Positions 14,657-57,842 of a stretch of DNA of 64,000 nt are shown here, piece by piece. The notes below the pieces were generated by a model. That model was not told the DNA's origin and did no database searches. It saw only the letters and a program-made list of their open reading frames with translations. Source of the DNA: Nemertoderma westbladi (taxonomy: Eukaryota > Animalia > Xenacoelomorpha); contig JAUCBJ010008427.1 in NCBI GenBank assembly GCA_032718475.1, positions 1 to 64,000 of the forward strand, written 5' to 3'. How positions within the stretch are numbered: the stretch's first letter is position 1; the number at the start of each line of letters is the position of its first letter. Both the position numbers and the translations under genes were made by a program.

Positions 14657-14666
14657 TTCTTTTATT

Positions 14667-25184: not shown

Positions 25185-25278
25185 AACTACGTTTTTGACT
25201 TATACAATTACACACACAATCACAATTAATTTTCAATCTCATAAACCAAGACATTATTATTAATATTATTACTACTAT

Positions 25279-27754: not shown

Positions 27755-30700
27755 TTATGTGTTGATATTATTACTATCATTGTCATAGTTGCTGGCATGT
27801 CCATGTTGCTGCCCTAAAACCACTTGTGGAGCAATGGTTTTAGGTATAATGGGACGAGTTAACTTTGTGATATAGTGTCCATAGGGATAGCTGATATTTT
27901 TATCCTTCCACCAACGTTTAGTCTCCCATAAAGTTAATGATTTCTTATGAATTCGGGCAGTTTTTACTTGATGTTTGTCCGATCTAAAGGCATTGGTATA
28001 CCGAAACAGCTCAGTTTCATTGAAATAGCAATCCAAATAATCTTGATGAGAAATTTGCTTTGCTACAACACTTTTTGATACACTTTTTGAAGTTTTTTTC
28101 TTAGGAGCATCATATGCTTCAAATGAGTATACTTTTGGTTTTAAAAATACCCATGATTTGTAGAGACAGCCTTTTGATTCATCCTTCAAAAAACCTAACG
28201 ATGCTTTATATTTATTTGTATATAGATGATATGAGGTATCATAGTTTGAAGTATCTAAAAACCCACCATTATACATTGCAGTTAAAAATTTATCGTGTGA
28301 AGTATTAGTGATGCTAAGCATGAGGCTATCAGTATCTCCACCACAAGCTCGAATTTGGCATCCTAATTGCTGTTCTATAGGCTTAATTTTAGAGTAGAAA
28401 TAATCATACATTTCCAATTTTGAGAGATCAAGGATAGCTATACCAATCAATACAGCTTGATTTAAAGTTACAGCTTCCTTGCAAAATGTATGTCCAGATA
28501 AATTTGGTGAAAATACAACAAAAGACTCATGATTGGGTTTAGCGACCAATTTTTCACATTCCTCGCTTGATGTTGCTAGCCTAAAATTTATTCTATTACA
28601 CACTTTTTGCAAACATTTCCCATATAGAGCATTATTTAAAAGCTTATAGAACAGAACTTCGAATGGATTTTTGGCAGATTGTCGCTTATTTGTATTAAAA
28701 GCTATATAGTCTCTAAATATGTATTTTTGTGAAAATGAATAAATATTATGAATTTTTGTAATTTTGTAATTTTGAGTCCCATTTTTAGATAAAATTGTAA
28801 TAGTTTAATATGAACTCCATATTCATATTTAGGAAATTGATGAAGTAAAAGTTTGGTGGATACATCATTGTATTTTTTGATGGAAGCATCGTCTCTAATA
28901 TTATAATGCTCCCACTGGTTTTTCATATGTGGGCTGAGAAGAGAAGATGGTACGCTCATCTTCTCAGGACCCAATGGCATATCAATAGTGAGATCTTGAA
29001 CTTTTTTTGGATAATCGAGGCTTACTACACAAAAATATCCAGTATCACCATCAGCATCGATTGTGGCCAAGTCAATTGGTATTGTGACTTTTTTGATGTT
29101 GGCATATGGAAGCTTTTGAGATAGAGCATGACCATAAAGATTGTTTGCATCCACTGGTATCAAATATTTTTCTGGTTTGGAAGAGTCATATTCAGGTTTT
29201 CCAGGGATATTGGCCAACTCCAAATGCGAATTTATAAAAACCATTCCTCCACGGATAGAACATTCAAATTGAGAATAAATGGAAGAATCACTCAATAGCT
29301 CAATTGAAATATCTATGAATTTTAGAGCAGCATCATGTGTTAATCCTGGTGCTGTATAATAATGGAGTGGTTCTAGACTATAGTTAGTTAGGCAGAGTTG
29401 ACGAAACTCTTCGAAAACATCAGCTAGGAGAGTAATATAAAGACAGAGATAGCCCATTAGATAGTCATAGATAGTCTGACATTGAAGTTCATCCCAAGCA
29501 GTGAGTGCACGTTGATAATCTTGAATAGAACAGTCTTCGAGTTTAAGATCATTATAAAAGTCTGCAATAGGAGGTAGTTTGGTTTCATGAAGGTTGGAAA
29601 TATTTTGGATATAGCTATAGGGAAAGACACCTTTATTCTTAATAGTAGAGTCTGTAATGTTTGGATATAGTGCTTTCATTTGAGTTAGCGTATGTGGAAT
29701 AGCTGTGGATAGATTGGAATTGTTGGAGGTAAGATAGCTACTAAGGTTGTCTAAACTAGCAGTCATAAATTGAAATGAGTCCAAAAAATTAAGGCAGATG
29801 GTATCTTTCAATGTGGCAGATTTTGCATTTTCATCTATTGAAATGTTGCTTGTAAATTTATATAATTTTCAGTCGTTTGCGGTATTATATTAAAATGCCA
29901 ATGTTTGCGTGCACTTGTGGTCATGCCTTCCTTTAACAGTATATGTAGGTCATATTTTCGGAGATTATGAAAAATGATGGCAAATTTATTTCTTTTTATT
30001 GATAATTTACGATTACAACTGCTGACGCAAGCAGCACCACGATACTTTCCAGTATAATGGTCATGGTCGCGAACCTTTGTAGTTAAATTTTTAGAAAGGT
30101 CTAGTCCATAAGAGTCAGGAGTAAGGATACAATTACAAGAGTAGCAGTTTGTTGCAAGATTAAAGTTTTGTTGTTCAGTCTGTGTTAAGTGCATGTGTAT
30201 GTTAGTATTTGTGCCAGAGATTGACCATTCATAGAGTTTCCTACAGTGAGATTCTAAAGCAGTTAATAAATCATTTATTACATGATTGGAGCCATCATCT
30301 TTGAAAGTTTGAATTGGAGTAGGTGGTCGGTTTATTAAATTGCGGTTAGGTATAGTATAAAATGCAGCCGCGCTTGCGATGTGTTTTTGAGGAAATTTGG
30401 GGTCTGATATAGGTTCTAGAATAGTTTCTATATCAGAGTAGATGCAGAAAGGAGGAGAAAGTGTTTTATCGAGTCTGTTAAATTTAAGTGTTAGTTTGTC
30501 AGGAGTAGGCATTCGCTCCACTTGTCATTTAGCGGAATAGCAAAGGTCACGGTGTGTTTCTAATGCATTTGACAAATAAAATGGTTGTGTGCAACGCTCA
30601 CAGAAAAACAAACGGTTATGTGAGCCTGTTCTTGTGTTGAATAGGCGGCCCAAGTCTGATACCGCTGAATAATGTCTAAGAAGACTGTTTGTATTGTCAA

Positions 30701-31990
30701 TGAAAAGTAGAGTTAATACAGTTTTATTTAAGCAATGATATTTGTCAGGTTGGCGTAATATTGTAACCGATTTTCGTGCCAGAGGAGTAAGTTTATACAA
30801 TACTTGTTATTATCCTTTTCAAATTTATCAATGCCTGTTTTTATATCTATAGGAAAGGTAAGAGATGAAAAATCGAATTCATTAAGGTAAGGTGTAAATG
30901 TTGAAACTCTGCTAATATTTTGTTTTTTCCTATCAATTTTATGCTGGAAGGCTGTAGCTAAAACTGCATACTGAAAACATTGACCTAATGGACAGTCGAC
31001 GTTAATAGTACACATTTTGCCAGCCAAATTTTTTGGTATCTTTCCGACATTACCTTTAAAATATGCATTGCGATTATAGACAGAAATTTGAATATTAATC
31101 CTATCTATTTGTACTAACCACCAACCAGAACCCATATGTACAAAACTAGCAACTAGCTCATCTATCCTACCAACAGCATTTTGGTACCAACGTTCAAAAT
31201 CATTTTCGGATGTAATTTCGTAATTTTCCCCACTAGATTTGAAACGAAATGTTTCCATTTGCACCCCATCCCCTTGCTCCCGTTCCAAAATTAAAAATAT
31301 TGAAAGCCAAATTTTTATAAAAACACCTAAATTATTCGAAAAATGTTGATTCACCCTCCCCCAAACATAAGGCCTATTGGCCTATTTTCGTTGAGTGTTT
31401 CTTCTATATCTAGATGAGTGGTTGTTAGTTTATTACTATACTCAAATAACCTGTTGTGGGCAGATGTAGTGTTGGGAAAAATTTCTTCAAAATTATTTGG
31501 AGAAGAAGAAGTAGATGGTCCAGCCCCAACTTGTCCCACTGGTGATGACACTGGTGATGTAGATGCAAACACATATTGATGTTTTCTTTTACGTGAGATC
31601 AACTGAGTGTAACAAGAGTGTTCTTTAAAAGAAGAGAGAGTGAATGTTTCACCGCATTTGCAACTCGAAGGTGTCAACGAACCTTCGAGTTGCAAATGCG
31701 GTGAAACATTCACTCTCTCTTCTTTTAAAGAACACTCTTGTTACACTCAGTTGATCTCACGTAAAAGAAAACATCAATATGTGTTTGCATCTACATGAAA
31801 CAGTGAAACCAGTTCCCCCTTCTTCGCAAAGAGATTGGTGTGCGATTGCAGTTTTCTTTTCGGATGTGAAGACATTGCAATTGTCACATTTATATTGTTT
31901 GAAGTGTGTTTGAAGATGATGGCTAAGATTATCGGATCTCATCTCAATTTCGCAGACAGGGCAAACGATTATTCGGGAAGACATAGGCAT
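27755..31990 (-). pseudogene. protein-primed family B DNA polymerase with N-terminal C2H2 fingers, EndoVII-like insert and 3'-5' exonuclease; fragmented
   Basis: CPVC..HLQTH, IYSDIET, VRDHDHYTGKYRGAAC, FHNLRKYD, FLDSFQF, KGVFPY, IRGG, DANNLYG, KLLNNALYGK, GGDTDS, LKPKVYS. Several stops and frameshifts. Confidence 0.93.
31557..31796. repeat. perfect 116-bp fold-back inverted repeat with 8-nt loop
   Basis: 31557-31672 is the exact reverse complement of 31681-31796. The loop is GTCAACGA. Confidence 0.95.
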
Positions 31991-33900: not shown

Positions 33901-33966
33901 TTTTTGGCACGAAAAAGGTGCGAGTGAGGTCTAAACTGTCGCCATATCCTGGTCCTCTATACTACT

Positions 33967-36200
33967 TATGGGCTGTGAGAATTGGGGGTGGGCCAATTAT
34001 TTGTTCTAATATAATGTCTTCATGGTTTGCGGATTGGCCACGCAGAAGAATTCCCGTGTGCTGGTATGGAATGATGGAGTGAGCGATCCGGGAAAATGAA
34101 ATTTTGGAGCCCGTTATAAAGTTTTTGACATCCGATATGTCGTATTTTGCCATAGATTTTCCTGGTACCACAGATTCTGATTGTGAAAGTTTGTACTTTA
34201 GTTTGATGTTAAAGAGGACCTTTTTGTGGTCCGGTGTGGGATTCACATCCGCACCGTGGATCTCAAATCCACGTCTCACATTCTTGAAAGTTTCACTGAT
34301 GACCTCTGATAGTATTCGTTTCACATTTCTAATTGTAATGTTCAATCCGACAAAGTACCGAAACGGTAGGTTTTCGTCCATGAAACTGTCCAAAGAAAGC
34401 GCCTCAACTTGGAGGCAATCGAGATACGGCGTGTATGAAAGTTTCACTAAAATTTGTATGCTTTCTTTAACAGAGTTACAGAAATGTTGAACGGTCTTCT
34501 GTTTTTTTCTTGGAGGTTCCATTTCCACACAAATCACGTGTGAGTTTTCATAACGGAACTGTCGAGAAAGACAAACATATGAAGTATGAGTGGTAATAAA
34601 CGTTGAATCAAACAATTTTGACAGGAACTAAAGTTCTCGAATTGAGTAATTCTTTTGAAATATAATACATAATAGTAATATATAATAGAGTCAAGCTTTT
34701 TTAGCTGCACAAATATATCAATTTTCATATATAAGTATAAACTCTCTTGTTACAACATGATAAAATTAATCTAATTAAACCATTTGAATTCCGTTTGAAC
34801 ATTGCTAGATATCATGTTGGAGTTTGGTAATGTTAGAGGTATGGCAAATCCCAAAATAATTATAAAGAATGACGAAAAACAGCGTAAATATTGCAATTCA
34901 TATCGTAGTAGTCGAGACACCCGCAAAAAGCTTGACTCTAATCAGTTTCCACTACAGTATATATAGAGCTACTGTACTTGATACAGCAATACTATACAAT
35001 CCAAAACTCCAAAACAAAACAGAAGACAGTTTAAAATTTCTGTAACTCTGTTGAAGAAAGCGTACATCATTTAGATTAGTTAGCTCAGTCAGCAAGGCGT
35101 CAACTATTGATATTTGGAGTGATTGTTTCGCGATGGCCGGTTCGACCCCCCCTCTATTCCAAGCTGTGCTCCCTCCTCACCAGGCCGTATCCGATATATC
35201 GGGTGCTAGTGGGTATCGGTGGTGAAGTGGTGGTATATTCCCCACGTGGTCGCTTATATACATAGGTCGCTTGCAGTAGTTGAGTGGAGTGTATACCATC
35301 AAGTCATCATTGGGTAGCACTATAAAGCTCTAAAGGGTGTGACAAAAAAAACAATCATTTTAAAATGGTCCATAAAAAAATTATGTTGTGAGGTAGAACC
35401 TCAAATTTTGGCACACATATTCCAAATTGGTTCTATTTTCACAAAATATGCGTAATTTTATCCAAAATTTAGAGTAAACGCCAATGTCCCACATAGATTG
35501 GCGCCCAACGGTGTCCATGTGAGGTGTATAGAACAATAATACACGTCCGAGTTAATTCCATAATAAACATTATAATTGTAACAGACAATTTTACCGTACA
35601 CAATAGGGTACATGCCTATGTCTAAACATTTGCAATAAATCATATGATTATACATAACAGGGTATCCAGCCAAGTCATTTTGTAAAAATTCGTAAATGGT
35701 ATAAATCGGCCCTTAAATCTCGCCATTTAGCAAATCTCTCTGTGAGTGGCTGATTGTATTTTAATGTCACAAGGTTGTTTCTGATTGTGCCGGTATATTT
35801 ATTTCCCTCCTACACAATGCTGCTGGGGCTGCCTTCCCTTCCCGGTTATAACAGATGTTGAGATCGGTTATATAAAAGTTTTGTAAACATTTTCTAGGAA
35901 CTAGCATCCCACTGTTGCTATGGAAACCTCATCTGAAGTAATTCTTCATACCACCTGTAACTTGAGATTACTTTACTATGGGTTGGGGTTGCCCACTGTT
36001 CTTTTATAGGATTGCCGTATGACGTCTCGTTGCTATGGTAACAGACATATTCGAAAAGTTAGATTTTGTTCTCCAGCCAGAGTGCACTGGACAATTTTTG
36101 CTCTCAACTCTGTCACTAGTTGTGTATTGCTACTGGCGATATTTTACCAAAGTTTCACCGATGTACCTAGATGGTTGCTATGTTATCACTAAGCAAACCT
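33967..36200 (-). repeat. partial copy B of element Y; gene X exon 1 (ATG at 34522) is cut by the Polinton insertion
   Basis: Direct match to about 9631-12048 and inverted match to 38794-41057. Confidence 0.9.
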
Positions 36201-36498
36201 TATATTTGTTTGTATATTTGTATGTTTTCTATAAGTTTCCGTTTTCCAATAAATGAGCGCACCAACTACCCCCAGGTTAAAATTTACTCCTTACCAGACT
36301 GACATATTTCTGAAAACTACCCCAAAATTTCAACTACTTTTTCAGAATAAGAAGGGCGATAATCGGTAGGTTGTATGAGATTATCAGCAATAATTACGCT
36401 TTGAATATGACCAAATTAATTCTGGAGAAGACAAAGGTGTCACAACTTCAAGGGTGTTTTGCCAGCCACCCCTTCGTCCCTTTCCAGGCTGGCAAATA

Positions 36499-39400
36499 AA
36501 GGGTGTGACAAAAAAACCAATCATTCTAAAGAAAAGCCAGCTAAATGTGACCATAAATAGAAACCTTCGAATTTTTTGTTCTGCATAGGAAGATTTGCTC
36601 AATTACTCCTAATCTAGCATGTTTTCGTAACTGCTATTACCGATTTTTGAAAATTATTGACAACGTGCGCTAAGGTATATACAGGGGGTCAGCTTTGGAA
36701 CATATGATATACTGGTGTAGCTACATTGTGGCGGAATTTCCAAACATGAGTTACATGGCCGAAATATTCATGAAAGTTGTATATATTTTATGTCCGAATA
36801 GGCTCCATAGGGTTACTTTCGGATTGGATCATGTATGGACCAACCATGACCAATAAATCCGTATTCATTTTTTGGTGAAATTTTCGACAAAATTGGCAAA
36901 AATTCTAAAAATCTGATTTTGAAGGAATCACTTTGTATCTCTGTTCAAACTAAATGAACGCGATGATCCCCCCGGCCGCGTGTGGGGTCGTGACGGGTCG
37001 CTCTGCGGCTGTAGCAAGGGGCACCGGAGGACCTCCGAATTGGCGAGCAATCACTCACGGTGGGCTTAGAGCTGGTAGCTAGCACGTCGGGTTTGCACTC
37101 GGCTGAAGTCCGACAGGGTCGGATGGATATCTGGAACAGTACGACCTAATAATTCCCTACAGGGTACACCAATATCCAACTATCATACACCCACACACCC
37201 ACACACCCTCAATCATACAGTAGGTATTCGCACGGTTGCCACCGTGGAAACAAACGCTCGGTAGGATAGCCTATCAGCTACTGTGTCGGGCACAGACCTA
37301 CAGTAGGCATCTGCCTACGCCCGGTATAGGCGGAGGACAGTCCAGGTCGCAAACCAATGAGTAGTGGCGGGCGCAACAGTAAGACTGGGACTTACAAACT
37401 CCACCGAACTGGGTTCGGAAAATGACTAACGATAGACTTTTAGCATCCAATCACAAAACGTCTCGATTGATTGGACTTCGCCGCAGACACCTCCATGGCG
37501 ACGCTGGGCTGGTTTTGTCCCCATTATCTGAAGAGTTGCACCGATAATGTGTAAAGTAGACTATTATTCTGGCTGCCAAACTGCTTGTAACACCAATATA
37601 TCACTGGTAATAAGTGAGACTGGTAGATATACGATACCGTGAAATACTAGAGAATGATATTAAATGCTGTAAAATGCTGGAACTGTTGGTAGATAAGATA
37701 TAAGTTACTGACAGAATGGAAATGTTGGAAATGGTATCTAATTATTGGTTTCACTCAGCCAATTACTAACTACTGCCCGCTCACTCTGTGCACTCAATTG
37801 ATATACCAAATCAGCTAGCCATGTTGGTCTGGATCATCCCTGGATATACTTAAACCGGCCAATGAGAATTGGTTATCATATATCGAGCTGTGTCATGGCT
37901 AAGCTGAGGGTATCACTGAGTGCCCATCACAAGTCAAGCGAGGTAGCAGTTAGATGAATCATGAATGGGCAGAGGTGAATCTCTCTGTAGCACAAGCGAG
38001 ACAAGGGTATCACAGGCTACTTACTATTAGTACCCAACCGAATTGTAAACAACCTACAACTAAGCAGTCGGACAGCAGCCCCACATGGTAAATGACTAGA
38101 ATTATAGTAGATAAGGAACTAATAATGATAGCAATAGGGTATATGCCTATGTCTGAACATTTCGAATAAATCATCTGATTATACATAACAGGGCATCCTA
38201 AGACCGTGACGTGGTCATTTTGTAAAAATTCCCTGAGGAAATAGGGTAAATCAGGGTCCAAACATGGACATTTTCCAGCTGCTCTGTTAGTGGATGATTG
38301 TATTGTGACGTCACAGGGTTATTACCGATTGTAACAGGTAGTATTATTTCCTACCTACACAATGGTTCCTGGGCTGCTAGTGCTGAGAGTTTATTTTGTA
38401 TGTTACATAATAGTAATAAAAACATTTTTGGAAATATTTAGAGAAACTGGCACCTGCCATTGCTATGGAAACAGCGTCAGAAGTTATTTATTCAACCACC
38501 TATAACTCGGGAATACAGTATTGTATCAACTTGTCATTGCAAGTATGAGTTTGTGTTACCAACTACAGTAACATATCTCAGTATATCTATCTTCTGTGTC
38601 CCCGTTGCTATGGTGACAGATGTAACGCGAAATTAAACATTTCGCTTATAGACAGGTAACGTTAGCGAATTTTCAAACGATGACGATTGGAATAGTTGCA
38701 TACCATAGTTGTGAGAAATTTCTTACAGTACCATAAACTGAGCCGAGAATCCTGATCCACAGTGAACAGAGTATCCAATTGGAGCCTTCATTCAGGTTTG
38801 CTTAGTGATACCATAGCAACCATCTAGGTACATCGGTGAAACTTTGGTAAAATATCGCCAGTAGCAATACCCAACTAGTGACAGAGTTGAGAGCAAAAAT
38901 TGTCCGGTGCACTCTGGCTGGAGAACAAAATCTAACTTTTCGAATATGTCTGTTACCATAGCAACGAGACGTCATATGGCAATCCTACTCGTATATAAAA
39001 GAGCAGTGGGCAACCCCAACCCACACACACCAGAACCAGTCGATATAGTAAAGTAATCTCAAGTTACAGGTGGTATGAAGAATTACCATAGCAACAGTGG
39101 GATGCTAGTTCCTAGAAAATGTTTACAAAACTTTTATATAACCGATCTCAACATCTGTTATAACCGGGAAGGGAAGGCAGCCCCAGCAGCATTGTGTAGG
39201 AGGGAAATAAATATACCGGCACAATCAGAAACAACCTTGTGACATTAAAATACAATCAGCCACTCACAGAGCGATTTGCTAAATGGCGAGATTTAAGGGC
39301 CGATTTATACCATTTACAGGATGAATTTTTACAAAATGACTCGGCCACAAGTCTTAGGATACCCTGTTATGTATAATCATATGATTTATTGCAAATGTTT

Positions 39401-39691
39401 AGACATAGGCATGTACCCTATTGTGTACGGTAAAATTGTCTGTTACAATTATAATGTTTATTATGGAATTAACTCGGACGTGTATTATTGTTCTATACAC
39501 CTCACATGGACACCGTTGGGCGCCAATCTATGTGGGACATTGGCGTTTACACTAAATTTTGGATAAAATTACGCATATTTTGTGAAAATAGAACCAATTT
39601 GGAATATGTGTGCCAAAATTTGAGGTTCTACCTCACAACAGAATTTTTTTATGGACCATTTTAAAATGATTGTTTTTTTTGTCACACCCTT
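36499..39691. mobile_element. non-autonomous TA-flanked (Tc1/mariner-like) element with internal imperfect inverted arms
   Basis: TIR AAGGGTGTGACAAAAAAA(A/C)CAATCATT, TA at 36497-36498 and 39692-39693. About 38130-38640 is a diverged inverted copy of about 38920-39425. Confidence 0.65.
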
Positions 39692-40501
39692 TAGAGCTTT
39701 ATAGTGCTACCCAATGATGACTTGATGGTATACACTCCACTCAACTACTGCAAGCGACCTATGTATATAAGCGACCACGTGGGGAATATACCACCACTTC
39801 ACCACCGATACCCACTAGCACCCGATATATCGGATACGGCCTGGTGAGGAGGGAGCACAGCTTGGAATAGAGGGGGGGTCGAACCGGCCATCGCGAAACA
39901 ATCACTCCAAATATCAATAGTTGACGCCTTGCTGACTGAGCTAACTAATCTAAATGATGTACGCTTTCTTCAACAGAGTTACAGAAATTTTAAACTGTCT
40001 TCTGTTTTGTTTTGGAGTTTTGGATTGTATAGTATTGCTGTATCAAGTACAGTAGCTCTATATATACTGTAGTGGAAACTGATTAGAGTCAAGCTTTTTG
40101 CGGGTGTCTTGACTACTACGATATGAATTGCAATATTTACGCTGTTTTTCGTCATTCTTTATAATTATTTTGGGATTTCCCATACCTCTAACATTACCGA
40201 ACTCCAACATGATATCTAGCAATGTTCAAACGGAATTCAAATGGTTTAATTAGATTAATTTTATCATGTTGTAACAAGAGAGTTTATACTTAAATATGAA
40301 AATTGATATATTTGTGCAGCTAAAAAAGCTTGACTCTATTATATATTACTATTATGTATTATATTTCAAAAGAATTACTCAATTCGAGAACTTTAGTTCC
40401 TGTCAAAATTGTTTGATTCAACGTTTATTACCACTCATACTTCATATGTTTGTCTTTCTCGACAGTTCCGTTATGAAAACTCACACGTGATTTGTGTGGA
40501 A

Positions 40502-43500
40502 ATGGAACCTCCAAGAAAAAAACAGAAGACCGTTCAACATTTCTGTAACTCTGTTAAAGAAAGCATACAAATTTTAGTGAAACTTTCATACACGCAGTAT
40601 CTCGATTGCCTCCAAGTTGAGGCGCTTTCTTTGGACAGTTTCATGGACGAAAACCTACCGTTTCGGTACTTTGTCGGATTGAACATTACAATTAGAAATG
40701 TGAAATGAATACTATCAGAGGTCATCAGTGAAACTTTCAAGAATGTGAGACGTGGATATGAGATCCACGGTGCGGATGTGAATCCCACACCGGACCACAA
40801 AAAGGTCCTCTTTAACATCAAACTAAAGTACAAACTTTCACAATCAGAATCTGTGGTACCAGGAAAATCTATGGCAAAATACGACATATCGGATGTCAAA
40901 AACTATCTAACGGGCTCCAAAATGTCATTTTCCCGGATCGCTCACTCCATCATTCCATACCAGCACACGGGAATTCTTCTGCGTGGCCAATCCGCAAACC
41001 ATGAAGACATTATATTAGAACAAATAATTGGCCCACCCCCAATTCTCACAGCCCATACGTGTCATCAAGCTTCACTGAGACACGTACCCCTGAAGTTTTG
41101 GGTGGACAATGCATATCTGAATTCCAAAGGGGTCCCAATTGGAAAAGTGCTGTACAGATTTATATAAATTATATTCTACAACATAATTTTATGTTCTAGA
41201 ACGTTACTTATGTTCCTAGCTAGTATTTCTGAACTTGTTAATTACAACTCATTATCAACCAATTACTCTAATATAATGTTCTCGAGCATTTAACCCTATT
41301 AAACCCGGGGGGGGAAGGTCAATATGACCCCCCCCCGTGGTTTTTTTATTATAATTCTGAAACAAACGCAGTTGGGAATCTGAAATTTTATGACTTTTCC
41401 TAAAAATCTATTGTCTTCCTAGTAGTGAAAACCGTTTTCTAAAATATTGGGTAGTTTTCGAGTTATAGCACCATTTTTTAACCCTACTTTTGGCACTTTT
41501 TTTTGAGACGTTTTTTGAAAATTACATTTCATTAAATATTAATTGTAACATCTCTATTTTTGATTTACACCGGTTTTTTGGTGTTAGCAATTGGATGGAA
41601 TTCATATAAATTGATTTCGAAATTTCAAACTTGTTTTTTCGGTGGGTGCCAAATTTTGGTGCCAGCACCAAATTTTGAAATATGTCAATTTTGTAAATTG
41701 ATTGTTTGAAACTTGTTTTTTACGCAATTGGGGTTTTTTGGGGTTCTGGATTCGATGAAATATATATGAGTTGCACCAAGCGTATCAAACTCGTATTTTT
41801 CGGTGCTGTGTGCAAATTTTGGTGCTAGCACGAAATTTTGAAAATCCATTCAATAGATAAAATTGCTTGTGACAATTTATTTCTTGCGTTTTAGAGGTTT
41901 ATGGCTGTTCTGAATTCAATGGAATATATAATTTTCGAACTAGACATCTCAAACTTGTATTTTTCGGATGTGGGTGCAAAATGTGGTGCTAGCACCAAAT
42001 TTTGAAAACCATCAAATATGTCAATTGATTGTGTCACCTTGTTTCTTGCGTTATACGGGTTTGTGATGGTTCTGAATTCAATGGAATCAGTAAAAATTTC
42101 ATAAGAGTTCTCAAACTTGTATTTTTCGCCGGTGGGTGAACATTGTTGTGCCAGCACCAAATTTTGGAAAATATGCAAATTGATCAGTAGATAGTATCAC
42201 CTTGTTTCTTGCGTTATACGGGTTTATGAGGGTCCTGAATCCGATGGAATCAATAAAAACAGCACTGGACATCGCAAACTTGTACTTTTTGGTGATGGGT
42301 ACGAAATTTGGTGCTAGCACCAAAATTTGCCAAATTACGCCGAAAAATACAAGTAGCAATGATCTGACATATTAGAAATGTATTCCATTAGAATCAGCGC
42401 CCTCGAAAACCTGAAAATGTGAATTTATAGCATCGTATTGGTGAATTAAAAATTTTGTGTTCTAACTGAAAAGTGCTGGTTACTTGTTTTTTTCATTTTT
42501 TTCCTACGCAGAGAGGACTAAACAGCCATTTATAGTAATCATATCATTTTTAAATATTTTCCAATGTATTTTGCACCCCAGAAAACCTGTATTGAAAAAT
42601 AATTAGCCGAAAATGTAACTTTCAAATTTTGTGAAAATTGTGCACTACTTGTAATTTTGGTGCTACAATATAACCACCCCAGTACATTTTTTCGAAAATG
42701 TTTTTTTCGGTCAGATCCAGACAAGTGATACCTACGTACAAACAAAAAATCAGACGTTTTCGTAAATATTTGTAGATTTTAGAGGGGGGGGGGGGGGTCA
42801 ATATGACCCCCCCCCCCCCCCGGTATTTGTACAACATTTTATAGCCGGGTACTAATAGGGTTAAAACAACAGAAAGTGATTTAAAATAAAACTGGATGTA
42901 ATAATATTCATATGTCAGTCTGGTAAATTGATTATATAACAATTTGTTAAAAATGTTGAAAAATAATAGCTATTCTCAGTGACGTTCTAGAACATGAAAA
43001 TTATGTTCTAGAACATATTTTGATTCAAAAAATAATTCCATTTATGTTCTAGAACATTATTAAATAACCAAGCAAGATGTATTGTCAAGTTCAAAAAAAT
43101 TTGCTAGGGGTGTGCACAAGGTGTAGTAGTACCATGCTTTGTAACAATTTTAATTTGCAAAAAAAGCAAATTCCTAGCTTCTCTGTTCTGGTTGGTTCTG
43201 TAGACTGAATGTTGTAGCAGCATCTTACCACGGGTACTCTGAAACTTGTGCACACGATAAGAGCGAGTTCAATGTGTATTATTTATAAACTGGGAAACCC
43301 AAATATTGCTCTCATCTGAGAGAAAACTTCTTTCTGAAAATTCAGAAAGAATATTTCTACCTTCCAAAATGATTTCATTTCATTTCTGAATCACCACTGA
43401 AAGCTTTTCGCTTTTCGGTTTTCAACATTTCTGTCTCCAACATCAAATCGATCCAATACTCTGTTTTTTAAATTTTTGGGCACACTCATTGGCTGGTGAC

Positions 43501-43787
43501 TCGGTGAATCGATTAGGTTCTAATCCCACATTAGACAAACCCAGACCGCTCCATTAATCCGTAGGTTCACAATCATTTTCTTATTTGCTTGCAGAATCGC
43601 AGGACAGCCTATCATGTACGACCTTGCAAAACTCAATTGTCAACATATAAGCTCCTATTTGGTCACGGGAACATTCAAGACTAATCATCCACTGACGCTG
43701 ATACCATACACATTCAGAACTGTTGGAATAGATGGTGTAACAGGAGAAACATTACAAACGTTGGAAAATGAGAATTCACTTCTCTAA
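40502..43787 (+). pseudogene. gene X of element Y, copy C
   Basis: ATG at 40502, CGA>TGA at 40706, splice donor deleted near 41160. Exon 2 (43595-43787) is intact. Confidence 0.7.
41294..42860. mobile_element. non-autonomous piggyBac-like element with internal ~175-bp degenerate repeats
   Basis: TTAA TSD at 41290-41293 and 42861-42864. CCCTATTA termini. The empty site is seen in copy A near 9162. Confidence 0.88.
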
Positions 43788-44117
43788 CCCCAGAAACAAT
43801 TTTGGTGCACAATCGATGCACGAACTATGTGCAGCAAAATTTTATTAAAACGTTGTTTTTGTAACGCTTCGAAACATGTAACAAACAAGTATGTTTCTAG
43901 AAACACTCTTATAGTGTAATTGGAAGAATTGTGATTTCAAAATTAAAAGTCATAAATTTATCATATATATATTTCAACTTATATATTATATTTTTGAAAG
44001 ACCATCAGGGTGTTCAGATAGGGTTTTATGAGAAGGTATGGGAATCTTTGTTCCGATTGATCTCAAAAGCTGTGAATGATGGTATAGTTCTGAGTATGGT
44101 TTGAGAGCGCACGTTAT

Positions 44118-44643
44118 AGGGGTAGCCAAAAATGCTGCCCCCGAAAATAGGGGGTAGCCAAAAATGGCGCCCCCGAAAATAGGGGGTAGCCTAAAATGCT
44201 GCCCCCAAAAATAGGGGGCCATCAAAAATGGTGCCCCCGAAAATAGGGGGTAGCCAAAAATGGTGCCCCCAAAAATACGGGGTAGCCAAAAATGGTCCCC
44301 CGAAAATAGGGGGTAGCCAAAAATGGCGCCCCCGAAAATAGGGGGTAGCCAAAAATGGTGCCCCCAAAAATAGGGGGTAGCCAAAAATGGTGCCCCCAAA
44401 AATAGGGGGTAGCCAAAAATGGTGCCCCCGAAAATAGGGGGTAGCCAAAAATGGTGCCCCCGAAAATAGGGGGTAGCCAAAAATGCTGCCCCCAAAAATA
44501 GGGGGTAGCCAAAAATGGTCCCCCGAAAATAGGGGGTAGCCAAAAATGGTCCCCCGAAAATAGGGGGTAGCCAAAAATGGTGCCCCCGAAAATAGGGGGT
44601 AGCCAAAAATGGTGCCCCCAAAAATAGGGGGTAGCCAAAAATG
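44118..44643. repeat. 30-32-bp GC-hairpin tandem array (GGGGGTAGCCAAAAATGGTGCCCCCGAAAATA, about 17 copies)
   Basis: Visible directly. Each unit can fold G5...CCA/TGG...C5. Followed by 12-bp (GCYTGAAAGTGT) and TTGATTG-rich repeats up to about 44980. Confidence 0.95.
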
Positions 44644-44995
44644 AAATAAAAAAAAAATCTTATCTCATATGCTTGAAAGTGTGCTTGAAAGTGTGCCTGA
44701 AAGTGTGCCTGAAAGTGTGCCTGTGATTGATTTTGATTGCAGTTTGTTGATTGTTTTTGATTGCTGTTTGAATATTTTGATTTCAGTTTGATCGGTTTTG
44801 ATTGCAGTTTGATTGTTTTTGATTGCAGTTTGATGTAAGGCATGGGTGAGAGGGACACAGACTGAAAGTCTGAATGTATTCCTGGCAGTGCTTCTGTGAT
44901 TGTTTCTGATTGCAGTCTGTTGATTGTTTGTTTTATTTCTGTTTGATTATCTTGATTTCAGTTTGATTGTTTTTGATTTGTGATGCTCCAAAGTG

Positions 44996-47475
44996 TTAGT
45001 TGGTCTCATTGTGTGCTATAGTGACAATTCTATCTTTGTTCTTTTGTGGTGTTGTTTTTGTTCTTCCTACTTTCACTAGCAGTGGAGACAGTACTGTGGA
45101 CAAATCACACTGCATCAGCTCAACTTCTCTCTGCAAGAAATAACCATACACTGGTCTTGCAGATTCACCATCCTTGTTGTGCAAATATAATATATGACGA
45201 CGCACTTTTCCTCTATAGCTCTGGTTCCAGTATGCTATACATTGATATTCACCTTCTTCCAATTCAAGCACTTTTCTCACACTGCTCTTCTCTTTTGCAG
45301 GATATTCAACCAAGCACATGGACTTGGCCTTCTCATATTCACTTTCAACTTTCTTCAATCTTTCTTGAATTTTTTGCTGTTCGCCTTCCATTGGACATGA
45401 CAATAATGTCACTGGATACCAAGTGATTATCTGTTGCTTATCATTTGTGAACTGTTTGGCTGCTTCAATTTCAACTTTTAACTCTGAAGCAACCAAAAAC
45501 CAAATTTCTCGTGTTATTGGTTCTTGTGCTCTGTGAAAAGCATCTCTCAATTCATCCAAAACACACTCCAATCCTCGGTTGGAATATACCTTGAAATTTT
45601 CACCATTAATGGAAAGTAATACCTCATAGCTTTTGTAGGGTCCAACTGCATGTCGGAATCCAAGCACTGCTGCTTACAATGGTTTCACGCCATCCAGCTC
45701 AGAAATTTTGTGTATGGGAGTATGCTTCAGCAGATTCAAAACATATTCTTTGTATTCAGTTTCAAGTTGTTTTCTTTCCTTGAACTCCAGCAACCTTTTG
45801 TGTATCAAGGCTACTTCTTCTTGGTTTCTAGCATTTCTTTGCAGTGCATCTTGTCTCCATTTTTCACATTCTAAATCATCCAGAATATCAATGTTTCTCT
45901 GTGCTCTCTTCCAGGTTGACAACCAAGATACCTGATGTGTTTGCAAGTATTCAGGCACCTCTTGTATTTTCCATTGCTGTTCCCAATGATTTGCATGGCT
46001 CTTGTCTCCATGTCCATTCTATGAAATCTGTTGGTGGCAGCATTTCTTCCAATGGAATTCTTGCTTGAACTGACCTTCACTGTGTTGGTAGTTTCGATGA
46101 GCAAAGTATTGTTTTTGCAGTGGGGTCCTTGAAATAGCATTTCAGAGGTGCTATTTCTGTGCCCTTTTCAATTTCATTTTGATTTCTAATTTGGAAGCAA
46201 AATATAGGACAACCTCGAAATCCAACTTCTGAACAACTCCACAATATAGCTTTCTCCCATCTTTGTCTATTTTCTTGTATATCAAACTTACACTGCACTT
46301 TCACTCCAGAAACTTTCCCAGTTTTTGTGTGAGCATACCAAGCTACATATATTGTTCCTGTGGTCTTAGAGGCGATGACACAACACCTTGTCACCACTTT
46401 TGCTAGAGCTCGCCAGTGATTCCTCCCATTTTGCTGTACAAATAATCCCTCATATGGCTGTATGTTTTCTAATACACTTCTCATCACTTCCACGCCAAGA
46501 TCTCTAGATATGTAATTCATCGAGTACAAGGATATCTCAACTCTTGTACATCCATATTGCTGGATCAATGGATGTTCTAAGGATTTCCGAAGAACAGGGT
46601 TCCTGCAATCAGCATAGTCTGCCAAATGCCCTCCAAAATTCTCCAATACTTCTCCTGCTTCAAACTGGCAAACAATTTTGTTGTACAGCTTCTAACTCAT
46701 TGTATTTCCGCCCCAAGATGTGATGTATGTCAACAGATGATTTCCCACAGACGAAGTGTTTTCCAAAATTGTGGGCTGATCACCCTCCAATGCTGCTTGA
46801 AATGTCCCTTCCAACCTCCAACCTTTTGTTTCCACTAGATGTTTGACTATTGCCTTCCTATCAAGTGTTCCAGCAAAGTCCTTTGTGTAGTCCACAGAGT
46901 ATATTCCCCATCCACATGTCTGCAGTATTCTGCCAAATTCAGCCAAGTGCTCCTGCAGATCATCTAGGTTGATTACAGATACATCCAACTTTGCAACAAA
47001 GACAGCAATAGGTTCTTTTTGTTCCAGGTTTTTCCAGTTTTTGATATTTTTCTCCTTCATCTCTCTTTCAATTTTATGCACTGTTTGCATTATCACTCCA
47101 TGAGATTGTAATGGTACAGAGGCTAATATTTTTGTGTGTATAAAGTCATCACAGTTCTTCCCGATTGTTTGTGTTACCTCCCTCCTCAACTTCTCCACAA
47201 TATACGAGGCAGACCCAAACCTTCCAGTTGTTAACATGACAGAACTTTTGGTTCTCACAACTTGATCTTCTCGAAGATACCCATACACATAAAGATCGTC
47301 AACAAACATTTCCAATTCAGGCACATCTTGAAGCAGCATATTACCTCCATTGCCTGCTAGGTAATCTACTTTTGATATATCAGTCAGAAGATTAGACTAA
47401 CAGTAGATGCATGCAAGCTGACTTTGGAACTCTGAATCCCATCTGTTCAAATGTTACAAACTGTGTAGTATCCAT
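44996..47475 (-). pseudogene. decayed ~820-aa protein with Rep_trans (pT181 RepC-type) rolling-circle initiator-like motifs
   Basis: ORFs 46692 and 46077 are in frame, as are 45674 and 44996, across single stops. Frameshifts near 45965 and 47400-47440. Ordered motifs SVDYTKDF, KLYNK, TRVEISL. Confidence 0.6.
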
Positions 47476-47873
47476 ACTAGTTGGTTTATTTATGTTTTCA
47501 CATATAGTAGTAGCCATAGATATTTTCTATTAGTTTTAATTTCTTAAATAGATAATTTCTTTTACGTAATCTTACTTACAGCAAGACAATAAATATATTG
47601 GACAGAACATTTTGATTGGTGCAACTCTCCTCTGTATGAACTTCTAATCATATTGTGCTCATATAGAGTCAGAACATGTGAACTATTTTCAGAAAATTGG
47701 AATCCATCAATTTGTTAAGCGAAAAATTAGGCGAATATGATAATTTGTGATAAATTGGTGTAAAAAAGTAGTTGAAATTTCGGGGTAGTTTTCAGAAATA
47801 TGTCAGTCTGGTAAGGAGTAAATTTTAACCTGGGGGTAGTTGGTGCGCTCATTTATTGGTTTTCTATACTACT

Positions 47874-48516
47874 TATATGCCCTACTGAGGGCATGGAGTG
47901 TGGGAAGTGCCGTGGCCACATCTTTACCAATAGCTGAGTATGTTGGCCCTATGGATGTTAATCTTAGGTTTGTGTAAGTACCATTAATTAAATTTGTGTT
48001 GCAGCAAGACATGGATATCTTTGCATAGCTAAGATGAATACATCAGTATCCGGTAAACTTATAGTTAGTACAGATGCCCCACAAATTGTTGTATCAACAC
48101 CATGAAGGATTATCTACGTGTCTGCTTATTCTTGTTCGCACTTCAAGTAACTCATATCGCAAAAATTTGACTCAGAGTTTGAACTCCAAGCTACAACAAT
48201 TTTTTTCAGAAGGTGGAATGGTTGTTATAATATTGTAAGATATGAAATTTGTAAGTTCGTTTTATTTCTAGTATCCAATAATAAGGTTTTCATAGATATA
48301 TTCTTTATATTGGTGGTGTTGGTAATGTGACAGTAGACTGGAATAAGTCAACCTCGCCTTATAATCAGCGAGTCAGCTGTCTTATAATCAGCTGTCTTCA
48401 GCGAGTTGTGTACATCATATCATTCGAAGATATGTACTGATGATATGATATATACTGCCTCCATTCACTCATATTTATTTAATATTTGACTTTTAAATAT
48501 GTTTGCCAGTTTGGAG
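47874..48516 (-). pseudogene. Academ-type XPG-like nuclease remnant (inverted homologue of about 61663-62365)
   Basis: Reverse-complement similarity to 61663-62365, with degenerate E.ADT..ILH, DTDVFIL and LPTLHALS motifs. Confidence 0.6.
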
Positions 48517-50810: not shown

Positions 50811-51247
50811 TATACGAACGCTAACATAAGAACGCGGATCCTATTAAAATCACCACAACCGATGACTTAGATTCCATCAACCTATCCCAAGGACACCCTA
50901 TCGGTTCCAACGAATGGCAGAAGAGTAATAACAAGTCTAAAACCCGTAGCAGCGCTAGGACGCGACTCGGTACCGGTACCCATACACACTTACACAGGCA
51001 GTTTCGGAAACTAATTCACAAACCGCTACCGAAGATAATGGGTCGATCAGTAACTAATCGGGTAATTATCTGAATATATTATAGGTTTACTAGGATGAAC
51101 ATTACCTTATCCTTGTTTATAAGTGCACTGTATGTTCTACATGTTTATATTTTCAGTACAGGGCTAGTCATTCAGTCAGTGGTGTCGGGTTCACAATTAA
51201 AAGAAACGGTTTTAGTAAAGTAGACTTCTCTTTCTTTTAATCATCTC

Positions 51248-54200
51248 ATGTCTGTCTCATTTCTAAATCCTCACACCTCCATCTCGAACCATTCTCGCCC
51301 CATCTTACCATCCCTTCCTACTCCTGCTTGCAGATCATGTCATTTTTGTTTCTCAAAGCTCGAACTTACCGATCCAAAATTTTTGTGTAGTCAGTGTAAT
51401 AATATTTTCCATATACCATGCGGCACATGTCTCTCTGCTCAAGAAGTTACTACCACACAATGGCCTTTAATATGCTACAATTGTCATTGTGACACTTTTC
51501 CATTCTCTTTTATCGACGTAAATGATTCTGATGTGTTTGAACCAACCCATGGGGATGGGTCTACTCCAACCCCGGAGGATGACCTATCCACATCGGGTAT
51601 CTTAAACCAAACATTTAGTAGCTTAGACCCCGATAGTAATTTAATTAATTTAAATATTGACAAAGGTTATTATTCAGAAGGTAAATTTAATAGTGAATTC
51701 TCTAACCTAAAAAAATCACCATCGCTATCCATTTTTAACTTGAACTGTAGGAGTCTATCATCCAATTTATCCGCTATAACTGATTTTTTATTGACTATTA
51801 AATCTCAATTTGACATTCTGACATTCACTGAAACCTTTGCAAGTGACGACGACTGTATTAACCCTATAAAACTGGACAAATATGGCTATGCTGACCCCTT
51901 TCTAGACAACAGGACCACTGGTAAACTCCACAGAGGTGGCGCTGCGATTTATGTAAATAAATCACTTGACACGACCGAGCGGGTTGACCTAAAAATGCCG
52001 GGCCTTGAAAATTCATGGATCCAAGTCTCCCGCCTAAACTCAAAACCACTTATAATAGGCTCTATATACCGCCCCGATCCAGTCCATCTTGATACTTTTC
52101 TCCCTAGTCTAGAAACTACATTAAAGAATCTAACTGACCACAAATACGATGTAATAATTACAGGTGATTTTAACATAGATCTACTAAAAGCGATGGAACT
52201 CAAGCCCAAACAATATATAGATTTAATTAATTCATATGGTTTCGTTCAGCTTATTAATCAACCCACACGTGTAACTCCTTATTCTGAAAGTCTTATCGAT
52301 CATATTATTACTAACATTACTACTTCATTTTCCTCGTCAGGTGTTTTTCAATTAAAAATAGGCACTACAGATCACTTTCCGACCTTTTGTATTTTTCAAA
52401 AATATTCAGTTCACTTTAATCCCCAAAAAAACCGCACTGTCTTTGACTTTTCAAAATTTAACTCTCCCAAATTTTTGAGAGATATGAAATCACCAGCTTC
52501 GTGGTCGTACTCATCACCAAATATACCACCGAAAGAAAAATTTGAGTGTTTCTATAGCAACCTATCGGATATATGTACTAAACATATTACAAAAAAAACA
52601 ATCCCCACCCAGAAAGTGCCGCGTAAACCTTGGATGACCAATAATTTAATAAATTGCACAATTAAAAAAAATAAATTGTATAAGGCTTATATTAAGTCAC
52701 CATCGGAGTCCAACCATAGAAAGTACAAAATTTATAGGAATCAATTGACCTCAACTTTACGTTCAGCTGAGAAAACTTATTATTCAACGCAATTCAAACA
52801 AAACAGTAATAACCCGCGTAAAACTTGGATAATTATAAATAGCGCACTCAATAAATCTACTAAATTAGCTACACCTAAAAAAATTAATATTCGTTCAGGC
52901 AGTGCTACAGAAACAGTTACAGATCCAACGCGTATTGCAACCATCTTGAATAAGCACTTTTCTTCTATTGGTCCTACGCTGGCCAATGAAATCCCGCGCT
53001 CTATACGCTCACCACTTAGGCACATTAAAAATAGCAGATCTAATTCATTTTCCCTCTCCGAAACTTCCCCGGTAGAAGTCCAGTATTACCTGTTACACTT
53101 AAACCCTAACTCTGCTTCTAATGACAACTTTCCGACTAAACTTTTACGGCTAGCGGCTGAACCTCTATCTACTCATCTAAGTTATTTAATAAACCTATCA
53201 ATCTCCCATGGCTTCTATCCAACAACTCTCAAGTCCGCTAAAGTTATTGCTTCCTTCAAAGGGGGCGATCCTACCGACCCCAATAACTTTAGGCCAATAT
53301 CAATACTACCTGTATTAACTAAGATATACGAACAAATAATTGCCTCTCAACTCCAGTCTTATATTACTAAATTTTCTATCCTTACGACATGTCAATATGG
53401 TTTTAGACCTAAAACTTCAACTTCCCACGCTTTACTTTCTGTGCTAGAACACATCCGCAAAGCACTAGATGATAAACATTCTACATGTGCAATATTTATA
53501 GACCTTAGGAAGGCCTTTGATACTCTCAACCACAAAATCCTATTAGACAAACTCGATGCATACGGTATCAGAGGCCTTCCTAATCAACTAATAGAAAGTT
53601 TTTTGTCTAACCGAACACAATCAGTTGTTATTGACGACTGCTCATCCCCCCTGAACCTATAACTTGTGGTGTTCCTCAAGGATCTACCCTGTCACCACTT
53701 CTATTCCTACTCTACATTAATGACCTTCCTAACGCCACTAACCTAATATCTACTCTATTTGCGGATGACACTACTCTATATAAATCCAGTAAGGACTTAC
53801 ACCATCTCATCTCAAGCACTAACTCTGAACTAGACAAAATATCTGATTGGCTAATCGACAACCGACTATCTCTCAACTTGAAAAAGACTGAATACACCTT
53901 TTTTTCTAACACAATCGATAAAGCGTCTACACAGTTACCCATACTGCATATAAAATCTAGCACCATTACATATACAAATTTTACAAAATTTCTGGGTATC
54001 TGGGTGGACAAAAACTTATCTTGGAAAGCTCATGTCAATTACGTGACTAAAAAGATATCAAGGAATTGCGGTATCTTCTACAAACTACGACATATATTTC
54101 CCCTACATATACTACGTCAACTCTATTTTAGCTTAATACACCCCTACCTAAACTATGGACTTCTACTCTGGGGAAGCGCCCATGCTTCCACTCTAAAACC

Positions 54201-54603
54201 CTTGAGAATAAAAATAAACAAACTACTCAGATGCATAACATTTAGTCACTGGCAAGAATCTTCAGTACCTTTATACAAATCATTAAATATTCTTCCTTTA
54301 CATCTTCTTTTCAAACATCAGGTTGCCGTTTTCATGTATGATATCCACAATCACAATATTAGCCCGGCATCTGATCTCGGTCAATTGTTTAAGAAAACCG
54401 CAACCATTCACTCTCATAATACCCGGTCAGTTACACAAAATAAATTTTATCTGCCTCTATGTAGACTCACAGTAGCACAACGATCCATGAGTTTTCTAGG
54501 CCCCACAATCTGGAACGATATCCCCTACCATATACGACAATATCTAACAAAGCAATGCTTCTCGAAGCATTACAAAAGATTTTTAATAGCCAACATGATT
54601 TGA
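51248..54603 (+). pseudogene. CR1/L2-group LINE ORF2: PHD finger, APE endonuclease, RT; one frameshift near 53650 (element about 50810-54725, 5'-truncated)
   Basis: C4HC3-type finger. NLNCRSL, TET, GGAAIYV, IYRP, GDFNID, IDH, DH. NFRPIS, QYGFR, DLRKAFD, GVPQGS, FADD, KFLG. Confidence 0.93.
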
Positions 54604-55870: not shown

Positions 55871-57842
55871 TTAGAATATACTGGAATGATCAAATGGTCC
55901 AAGCAAATCAACATCAGCCGGCAAAGATTTGGGTTTAACTTTGAAGTGTTGTTTACGGAGAGCAGTGATTATGGGATCAGAAGTACATAGTGGCCGATTT
56001 ACAATATCCTCATTCGTCATTGACCGCGATGATTTTCGCGTAAAGTTCTCCCTATATCGCTTAATATGTTTGTTCCTCGCCTCTTGTGCCTCTTCACTAT
56101 ACATTCCGATTGGGAGGGACAATGAATCAATAGCCAAGTGCCCATGAAGCAGAGTGCGATGTAATGACATAGGCATGTAATACCACGGAAAAAGACACAT
56201 ATTCCTCAGCAGTTCCAAGCGCATAATGTTTGAACAATGTTGAGTTGACTTTAAAACCACAAGATTAGAACTGTATGGAGGCGCTCAATAAAACTTTCAT
56301 TTACTCCTAATATTGCGGCTGTTGTTTTAGAATTTTGAAAGGCCTTTCAGGCTGTGTTACCATCGTTGGAATTCCCAGAACCTCCTTGTTTTGGATGGTC
56401 AACTATGAGACCCAGTTCTCTACGAAATTCTTCTTGAATCCTTTGTTTTTCTTGTTTGACAATTATCTTATCGGATGGAGTCCTAGCAGCCCATTTCTTC
56501 GTTTTAAGTTTATATACTATATGCAAAATGCATTCAAAAAACCGGATCCATTGATGTAGGATAGACAGTCCATTGTGGTACATTGAAGTTTTTTTTGAAA
56601 CTGCTCTTGACTGTACTTCATCCAATTTGTTCATCTGCTTTGGTGTCGCACCACATACAGTACAGCATTAGCTACCATCAGTCATATCAGACAGCGCAGT
56701 GTGAATTTTTCCATCTATCATAGTAACATCTATAATATTAGTTACTGGTACATTTCTGCCATTTATTACAATATTTGTATCTCTCCGAGCAGAAATCTCT
56801 CCAGCCAAGTGAGCATCTTCAGCTATAATCCTTTCCTTAGTTTCTTTTGAAAATTCAAAACGTATAGGCCGACAATACATGGTAGATGAAGGATGTTTAT
56901 TTTTCCAAATGATTAGTCTGTCACTGCCTTCACCAAATGCACATAATTCGAGTGGGACAAGGCAAGTAACCAACAAACTAGAGTCATCAATGTCGTTTCT
57001 GTCAGCTGTGAGTTGCTTATAGTTACTCTGCCCAGAGCCATCCATCAAACCCAGCTTTTGATCGCAGTGACATTCGCAAAATACCACCACTTGAGTTTCT
57101 TGATTGTAAAACCTCCTCATTGGCCAAACAAATTCTCTGAGTCATATGGTCCAAAAGACTGGTCCAAGAAGTGGTATTGAAGCTCCAAGATCATTGCACT
57201 CTATTCCATCTGGGTAACAACATTTCTTCTTAGCAGAAAGAATATAATTGTATGGAGGGTAAAGGCTGACTGATTTAGTCTTAGCATGGTTTCTCAATAA
57301 TTGATAAGTAGATTTGGTCATGTTACCATCCAACAGCAGAGCAAGTCCTTCATCTGGAGATGTAAGTGATGATATTCCATCAGATTGAAGTGATGCTGAA
57401 ATCGCAGCTATTAGGGCTGGAGTTGAGAATTCCTCTGTCATTTCATGGATTTGTCTATGCTTTGTTCTTGATGACGAACCATCAAAGTCTAATACCTGTC
57501 GCCCCATAGCAGATGACTCTTCGACAACAACTATACAGGAAGACTGAAGACCACTTGAAGACTGTACTGGAGTAACTGGAACAGCTGTTAATGATTCACC
57601 ATCAAGAAACACACCACCTAACCAACTTTCATTATTATTTTCAAATCTTGGACAATATCGGTTGGCAGCTTTCCACCTGCTTCTGTAATTTGACAGAAAC
57701 TTAATCAGTTGCTGTTTAACGGCGTCCTTTTTGGAGCTGCTGGATGTTTCTCTATTACGAGGAGAAATAATGATACCAAATCATTATCAGGTTTACCCAG
57801 AAGTGATTGTTTAATATGGTCGCGGAGAAATCTTCTAAACAT
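55871..57842 (-). pseudogene. Transib (RAG1 core-like) transposase, frameshifted
   Basis: YPPYN, MDGSGQSNYKQ, PSSTMYCRPI, TMIDGK, GLSILHQWIR, GNSNDGNTA, WYYMP..LH..LLHG, SEEAQEARNK, SDP. Confidence 0.92.

Follow-up and report, generated by a model that had tools for sequence, protein, structure and literature searches.

A decayed gene of Nemertoderma westbladi from a eukaryotic family predicted to encode Rep_trans/gpII-like tyrosine nickases

Does a broken gene in the genome of the xenacoelomorph Nemertoderma westbladi descend from a tyrosine nickase of the Rep_trans type, and did such a nickase move DNA in a eukaryote? The gene lies in a stretch of 64,000 nucleotides (hereafter the window; assembly GCA_032718475.1, contig JAUCBJ010008427.1, positions 1 to 64,000), which consists of repeat-rich DNA with LINE, Penelope-like and Maverick sequences. 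The original prediction, made from motifs, had read the gene as a non-HUH tyrosine nickase or initiator in an animal mobile element. The eukaryotic rolling-circle transposons found in our literature searches use HUH nucleases, and Rep_trans enzymes appear restricted to bacteria, with an archaeal branch added, in the available text of PMC13107129 (2026). The freely accessible journal literature, as searched here, contained no report of a Rep_trans-like enzyme in eukaryotes.

The broken gene and its family

Minus-strand positions 47475-44996 hold one long broken gene of ~826 codons, which two frameshifts (near 47400 and near 45965) and three in-frame stops (46694-46692 and 46079-46077 in the main piece, 45676-45674 in the C-terminal piece) divide into six pieces (Table 1). 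A single decayed gene of about this length (~820 codons) had been proposed by joining five ORFs; the gene and its length stand, the number of pieces does not. Intact homologues exist and align by tblastn across the whole gene span in three frames (47457-47398, 47396-45960 and 45973-45014). The three motifs on which the original prediction was built follow one another on the minus strand in the order it gave, with KLYNK directly behind the in-frame TAG (46694-46692). At this codon, host contigs differ from the window in all three runs, so the stop is either private to this copy or an assembly error.

Table 1. Features of the gene and its immediate neighbourhood (positions in the window)
Feature	Position	Strand	Basis or remark
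Tandem array, 16.5 copies x 32 bp	44119..44643		Each unit holds the motif repeated near related 5' ends
Low-complexity spacer, 12- and 21-bp repeats	44650..44995		Between stop codon and array
C-terminal piece, with a long helix ahead of two predicted OB-fold barrels	44996..45973	-	tblastn, L002 model, fold searches
Main piece: predicted TBP-like (Rep_trans-like) nickase core and the alpha/beta region after it	45960..47396	-	Homology, P0003 model, fold searches
Motif IV GCTRVEISL	46527..46553	-	Glu at 46538-46536 = P0003 E320
Motif III KLYNK	46677..46691	-	Predicted catalytic Tyr at 46685-46683 = P0003 Y271
Motif I region YSVDYTKDF	46875..46901	-	Asp at 46892-46890 = P0003 D202; without Arg two residues earlier
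Motif N' Asp, putative metal ligand (P0003 D66)	47298..47300	-	Conservation; model strand 64-74
N-terminal piece	47398..47475	-	Separated by the frameshift near 47400; tblastn with intact homologue P0173 aligns 47457-47398 in another frame; translation
Repeat ending in AGTAGTATAGA	47763..47873	-	Same 11 letters as at 33966 beside the Maverick

Judged by its sequence, the window gene is a member of a large, unnamed, multi-copy family whose intact proteins measure about 800-1080 aa. Its N-terminal half, read through with X at the stops, retrieves 109 proteins at E<=0.001 (best E=7e-176), far beyond chance, and a profile search finds 137 family proteins. Among representatives at 50% identity, 1227 match at E<=0.001, a set whose weak tail may hold coiled-coil noise, and 352 match at E<=1e-30. 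Named members come from Nematostella vectensis, Elysia crispata and Tetrahymena utriculariae, most others being unnamed; with its ciliate member in Tetrahymena the family is thus wider than the animals to which the element had been ascribed. Single contigs carry several whole and truncated members (protein clusters), and homologues also lie on contigs of several Mb.

Known domain collections gave no name to these proteins. Pfam returned no match for the window pieces or for 57 close or 18 diverse homologues, PHROG nothing consistent for window pieces or homologues, and sequence searches against solved structures only coiled-coil noise.

Active-site residues, predicted fold and profile comparisons

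The Rep_trans site, as described in the accessible part of PMC5714925, comprises motif N' (D), RxD, T/SxY/ExG, YxKxxE with the Tyr on a beta strand, and W/LxRxE. We counted conservation in the non-gap rows of 152 homologues of at least 500 aa, using the numbering of homologue P0003. D66, D202, D206, Y271, K273, R318 and E320 are retained in 97-99% of these rows, and the window gene retains all of them. Conservation of the Tyr and the acidic residues, on which the original prediction had staked its case, is thereby borne out: motif III has Y271 in 149/150 and K273 in 148/150 rows, motif IV R318 in 147/149 and E320 in 148/149, the motif I Asp (D202) occurs in 135/138, and D66 in 121/124. The last is a fourth conserved acidic residue, which that prediction had overlooked. 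It is assigned to motif N' by its position, outside the reach of the local profile alignments, and is singled out by its neighbour, as D67 changes to Asn in distant members while D66 stays. In six members at 22-24% identity all seven residues, with them the Asp, Asp, Tyr-x-Lys and Arg-x-Glu, are unchanged. An alignment of 18 diverse sequences, some of them 17-30% identical to the first, keeps only 16 invariant columns, nine of which are the motif residues D, D, D, K, Y, N, K, R and E.

Other parts of the Rep_trans site differ. The Arg of motif I, noted as missing before the first Asp, is absent family-wide: among 137 non-gap rows its position holds S in 79, C in 44, Q in 7, E in 3 and A in 3, while distant members have D or Q there. 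We therefore file the family as Rep_trans-like and not as a member of PF02486. In the region of motif II, a family strand SVG-x-x-V-x-T-W/Y aligns to RepSTK1 without the final Gly. Motif III has no xxE at the expected spacing; the family has a Glu at +8, which distant members lose. No conserved HxH column, as expected of HUH enzymes, appears in 121 rows. A Walker A pattern occurs in just 2 of 82 proteins of at least 750 aa and is not conserved. Longer fused forms of the protein were not found, which is weak evidence, and neither a helicase nor a capsid gene was seen beside the family gene.

The core was examined in a model of P0003 (mean pLDDT 80.6, 460 residues above 90), which is 56% identical to the N-terminal half of the window gene. 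In this model D66 (strand 64-74), D202, Y271 (strand 264-272) and E320 lie on strands, and the catalytic core is predicted to be a TBP-like sheet bearing the Tyr and three acids. Foldseek found no PDB match at E<=0.001; TBP ranked first (0.028) and RepDE second and ninth (0.037 and 0.064). Against viral models an Inoviridae protein was best (E=7.7e-4), with G2P at 9.7e-3 and VETF-like large subunits also among the matches. VIA-align placed P0003 residues 57-353 on TBP, RepSTK1 and RepDE with modest scores: TBP outranks Rep in the PDB searches (Z 8.7 over 157 aligned residues at 8% identity, 7-9% across TBP, vs Z 5.9, rmsd 6.2, 183 aligned and 16% identity for RepSTK1), and RepDE gave Z 5.3. 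According to the available text of PMC13107129, the TBP fold is common to Rep_trans enzymes, and fold scores comparable to these underlay the assignment of the archaeal Rep-Arvir family.

For the profile comparisons we made Rep_trans alignments, in which RepC and RepSTK1 were combined with 10 Rep_trans loci, and a Phage_CRI alignment of 16 Phage_CRI loci plus M13 gpII. The loci were collected through family searches in 301 and 401 bacterial genomes, since viral contigs scanned with RepSTK1 and with gpII had yielded 0 loci and 1 locus, not enough for a reference alignment. In each of the three main comparisons (RepSTK1, RepC and gpII references) unguided hhalign matched D202 to the Asp of RxD and YNK to YxK, and against Phage_CRI the RxE also fell in register (gpII RFE), over 134-136 columns. 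The three P values were 0.0035, 0.038 and 0.04, each comparison scoring above 25/25 controls. With a broader family profile, P=0.0015 was reached both against the RepSTK1-referenced alignment and against the Phage_CRI alignment, in each case equalled by none of 15 block-shuffled controls. The RepC-referenced alignment stayed at chance level (P=0.11, reached by 1/15 controls). When the Phage_CRI alignment took four other rows as its reference, the P values were 0.017-0.15, with one comparison off-register, and neither global-mode hhalign nor single-sequence gpII gave a signal. In the ESM Atlas, the nearest named neighbours are Rep_trans and Phage_CRI clusters at 0.82-0.83, a lead only.

Motif spacing points the same way. 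The spacings of 65 and 49 in the original prediction are exact, the Tyr lying 65 residues past the second Asp (69 past the first) and 49 before the Glu. Counted as N'-Asp/Asp/Tyr/Glu, the window reads 136/69/49, gpII 140/54/48 and RepSTK1 107/63/17, with 96/49/23 for RepDE from published residue numbering; the spacing fits M13 gpII better than RepC. The outcomes that would have refuted the original prediction did not occur: the structural and the profile checks both lead to Rep_trans and inovirus gpII, with individually weak scores and no Pfam match. Fold, profile and motif lines, each weak alone, jointly converge on a Rep_trans/gpII-like enzyme, a conclusion that is largely supported. The conserved Tyr and acids, together with these matches, support the reading as a non-HUH tyrosine nickase.

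The C-terminus is predicted to form two OB folds. Modelling of the C-terminal 255 residues of the L002 protein (pLDDT 93) gives two beta barrels with a helix between them, for which Foldseek returned the POT1 tandem-OB domain as best match (E=2.6e-3), followed by HIN, RPA, TEBP and Cdc13; VIA-align matches were mostly OB folds, with Z at most 4.8. Such predicted tandem OB folds suggest single-strand binding. The MOBT (Rep_trans) relaxase RelSt3 needs two OB-fold partner proteins, separate from it in the account accessible in PMC12614216.

Ends, flanks and the mode of movement

Related copies behave as mobile DNA: they have one end, different flanks and multiple copies. Among the 41 metagenome loci examined (metagenome contigs of repeats can be chimeric), nine, the L006 family, have one common 5' end. 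In six aligned loci this identical, sharp end joins five unrelated flanks at TTA, and two of the flanks are different points of the Maverick polymerase gene. L006-family sequences diverge soon past the stop codon, and their 3' parts are variable. A TT precedes the 5' end in 9/9 cases; as the search itself required TTA, this count is partly circular, the exceptions being the five L006-family flanks and L030. Both element ends are visible in L030 only, which has 141-bp inverted ends of 95.7% identity and no duplication of the flanks; no true empty allele was recovered. Long-range inverted matches occur in only 3/42 loci, one of them an internal duplication.

The motif RGTWGYCVAAA recurs upstream of the gene in 26/34 stretches, with 63 occurrences seen vs 0.36 expected, figures to be read with the motif having been chosen by eye and post hoc, the loci being related and an array counting as one event. 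By chance about one match per 64 kb is expected, and in the window the motif is found only within the 32-bp array, 350 bp behind the stop codon. This array likely belongs to the window copy. Its outer edge was considered as a proven element end and rejected, there being no multi-flank junction, and neither host contigs nor the array edge yielded the ends of the window's own copy. Folding of 5' ends gave a hairpin signal in L011 (z -2.3) and in a three-unit array (z -3.35) and none in L030, L017, L002, single array units or 47763-47873. Within the host, 140-246 contigs per run cover 44650-48300 at 80-100% identity (three runs, two samples), among them an internally deleted copy; these counts imply many copies, though they are not a copy number.

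Taking sequence and models together, we consider it probable that the window gene is a decayed copy of a family encoding a non-HUH, Rep_trans/gpII-like tyrosine nickase with two OB folds, which likely serves as transposase, with copy-out of rolling-circle type as the likely mode. The protein would bind the short repeated motif RGTWGYCVAAA near the element end and, in a metal-dependent reaction, nick one strand through a phosphotyrosine. A host or Maverick polymerase and a helicase would then displace the nicked strand, which the OB folds may hold, and the enzyme would join it to a target next to TT/TTA without target duplication. Loose termination would account for the variable 3' parts and for the arrays of end motifs. 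Having no helicase of its own, the element may favour Mavericks, borrowing their strand-displacing polymerase and travelling with them. The family is likely a new transposon superfamily; that it is eukaryote-wide, from animals to ciliates, and moved by a Rep_trans/gpII-type nickase with built-in OB folds, we put at somewhat better than even.

The inverted ends of L030 could also mean that the same enzyme acts on terminal inverted repeats, cutting at both ends for excision and reinsertion or driving a linear intermediate through rolling-hairpin replication. Inverted subterminal repeats of 138 bp occur in L002, the 3' side of L023 bears an inverted copy of the L020/L030 5' region, and true terminal inverted repeats fit cut-and-paste or rolling-hairpin movement as well as rolling circle. 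Yet the nine contigs of the L006 family have the end motif at their 5' side only, with variable 3' parts, and Helentrons, as characterised in the accessible text of PMC4067079, combine subterminal inverted repeats, internal tandem repeats and a TT target without duplication and are rolling-circle elements nevertheless. We regard both-end or rolling-hairpin movement as rather unlikely.

The Maverick flanks raise a different doubt, namely that the gene is a replication gene or passenger of Mavericks or Polinton-like viruses, or belongs to a dependent episome or satellite, and is not an independent transposon. The L011 and L012 flanks match the N-terminal region of the Maverick polymerase (tblastn, E=6e-9), further flanks of family loci are what we take to be Maverick-like, and many intact homologues sit on contigs barely longer than the gene. 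Mavericks begin with AGTAGT; in the window, the gene copy is found 390 bp within a repeat that has an AGTAGT end, and 11 kb away from a Maverick. The family gene nevertheless breaks into the Maverick polymerase gene at two separate points, the behaviour expected of an invader, further copies are situated close to host-type exons, IMG/VR scans returned no relative, and no capsid or helicase gene was seen alongside; this alternative is unlikely. The repeat itself (47763..47873) may bound a Maverick-derived unit holding the gene. Of this repeat 97 bp recur inverted at 36246-36342, and at 47873 three contigs have disagreeing loose ends (run X2).

That TBP tops the PDB matches, and that VETF-like large subunits are among the viral ones, would also fit a non-catalytic TBP-like DNA-binding factor, for instance a relative of viral early transcription factors, in which the likeness of motifs is coincidental. 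The invariant D, D, Y, K, R and E stand in Rep order and on strands, however, identity to RepSTK1 is twice that to TBP, and Rep_trans enzymes themselves have the TBP fold (available text of PMC13107129), which makes such a factor very unlikely. A prokaryotic family with contaminated eukaryotic records, to which two records labelled as symbiont MAGs might point, is extremely improbable and largely refuted by context, as 185,579 prokaryote genomes gave one match only (on a 1.5-kb contig), phage and plasmid collections searched by tblastn nothing better than E=0.6, and the window gene is embedded in LINE, Penelope and Maverick DNA with homologues on multi-Mb contigs. The two symbiont records (L042 and protein P0015, on 1.5-2-kb contigs) are themselves likely host DNA contamination.

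Some of the loci carry further open reading frames. A conserved ORF of 110-125 aa and no known family, usually convergent with the Rep-like gene, is present in 13/42 loci (for example L002:3267-3641 and L022:2543-2875) and is not matched anywhere in the window. Downstream of the stop codon, L006-L015 and L021 carry short coiled-coil ORFs in shuffled sets. L007 and L013 have these ORFs in common although their 5' flanks differ, an arrangement suggestive of cargo or of chimeric assembly. Pfam gave no useful match for the small ORFs flanking the family gene. In L003, L004, L018 and L019 the element is directly bordered by long degenerate minisatellites, as it is by the 32-bp array in the window.

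Known systems and the surroundings of the gene

Two groups of enzymes come closest to the family. With inovirus gpII/Phage_CRI (PF05144) it shares the TBP-like fold, D, YxK and RxE in register, and near-identical N'-Asp-to-Asp and Tyr-to-Glu spacing. Unlike gpII, it has no PF05144 match and no RxD Arg, is twice as long, has a long helix and two fused OB folds, and resides in eukaryotic chromosomes with no virion genes seen. With Rep_trans (PF02486; RepC, RepDE, RepSTK1, MOBT) it shares the fold, the Tyr on a beta strand, three acids and the motif order (as far as PMC5714925 is accessible), whereas the Arg of motif I and the xxE that ends motif III are missing, motif II is not clearly preserved, and the described Rep_trans members start plasmid or phage replication or conjugation in bacteria. 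The OB folds of the RelSt3 MOBT system sit in two separate proteins, according to the accessible text of PMC12614216, and the two predicted in the family are in the same chain. Rep-Arvir of archaeal viruses and plasmids (DUF7845, PF25227) resembles the family as a remote Rep_trans relative seen by structure only, with weak Foldseek scores and TBP among its matches (PMC13107129, available text); it differs in that the family has no DUF7845 match, has OB folds and not a winged helix, and is eukaryotic.

Among eukaryotic elements, Helitrons and Helentrons are likewise tyrosine-based, but have an HUH nuclease fused to a helicase, neither of which was found in the family. Replitrons resemble it as eukaryotic Rep transposons that do without a helicase and combine a fixed left end with a fuzzy one on the right; in the accessible part of their description (PMC10288648) their nuclease has the HUH fold, their terminal repeats are short and direct, and their target is RG, and the enzyme is unrelated to the TBP-like one of the family. 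The family gene is often beside Maverick/Polinton DNA, but interrupting it.

If the reading is true, the family would provide the first Rep_trans-fold enzyme in eukaryotes, completing the third domain, as well as a second, independent invention of rolling-circle transposition and a new transposase chemistry for the classification of eukaryotic DNA transposons. It would also account for a large set of unannotated "hypothetical proteins" of 800-1000 aa. As intact natural homologues exist, the claim is directly testable, and a site-specific nick-and-join enzyme working in eukaryotic nuclei could serve as a tool.

The remainder of the window is rich in other elements. A decayed Maverick/Polinton occupies 12261-33966, with AGTAGTATAGA at 33966 on the minus strand, and retains pieces of a B-family polymerase (27758-31381), an integrase with chromodomain (24120-25199) and a protease (14231-14677); it is interrupted by a LINE at 18464-23712. 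At 31557-31796, just beyond the start of its polymerase, two perfect inverted arms of 116 bp enclose a loop of 8 bases. A unit of 2.2-2.5 kb is present in three copies of 90-97% identity (9528-12069, 33964-36200 and 38773-41161), with an ORF of 150-220 aa and no Pfam family; the Maverick lies between two copies in direct orientation, the remaining copy is inverted, and together with 8043-9296 and 41159-43986 the units form a 4-kb inverted pair. The interval 2730-8049 contains a Penelope-like element with a GIY-YIG domain and a 1251-bp direct repeat and, ahead of it, an ORF (4410-5648) for a protease domain of the Ulp1/C48 type (E=1e-18). In all three runs, contigs connect 45242 with 47814 on opposite strands, a rearranged copy. 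Farther along, decayed ORFs at 55871-57780 match RAG1 weakly (E=0.012) and are likely a Transib-type transposase, and a near-intact LINE at 51224-54603 encodes endonuclease and reverse transcriptase with a single frameshift.
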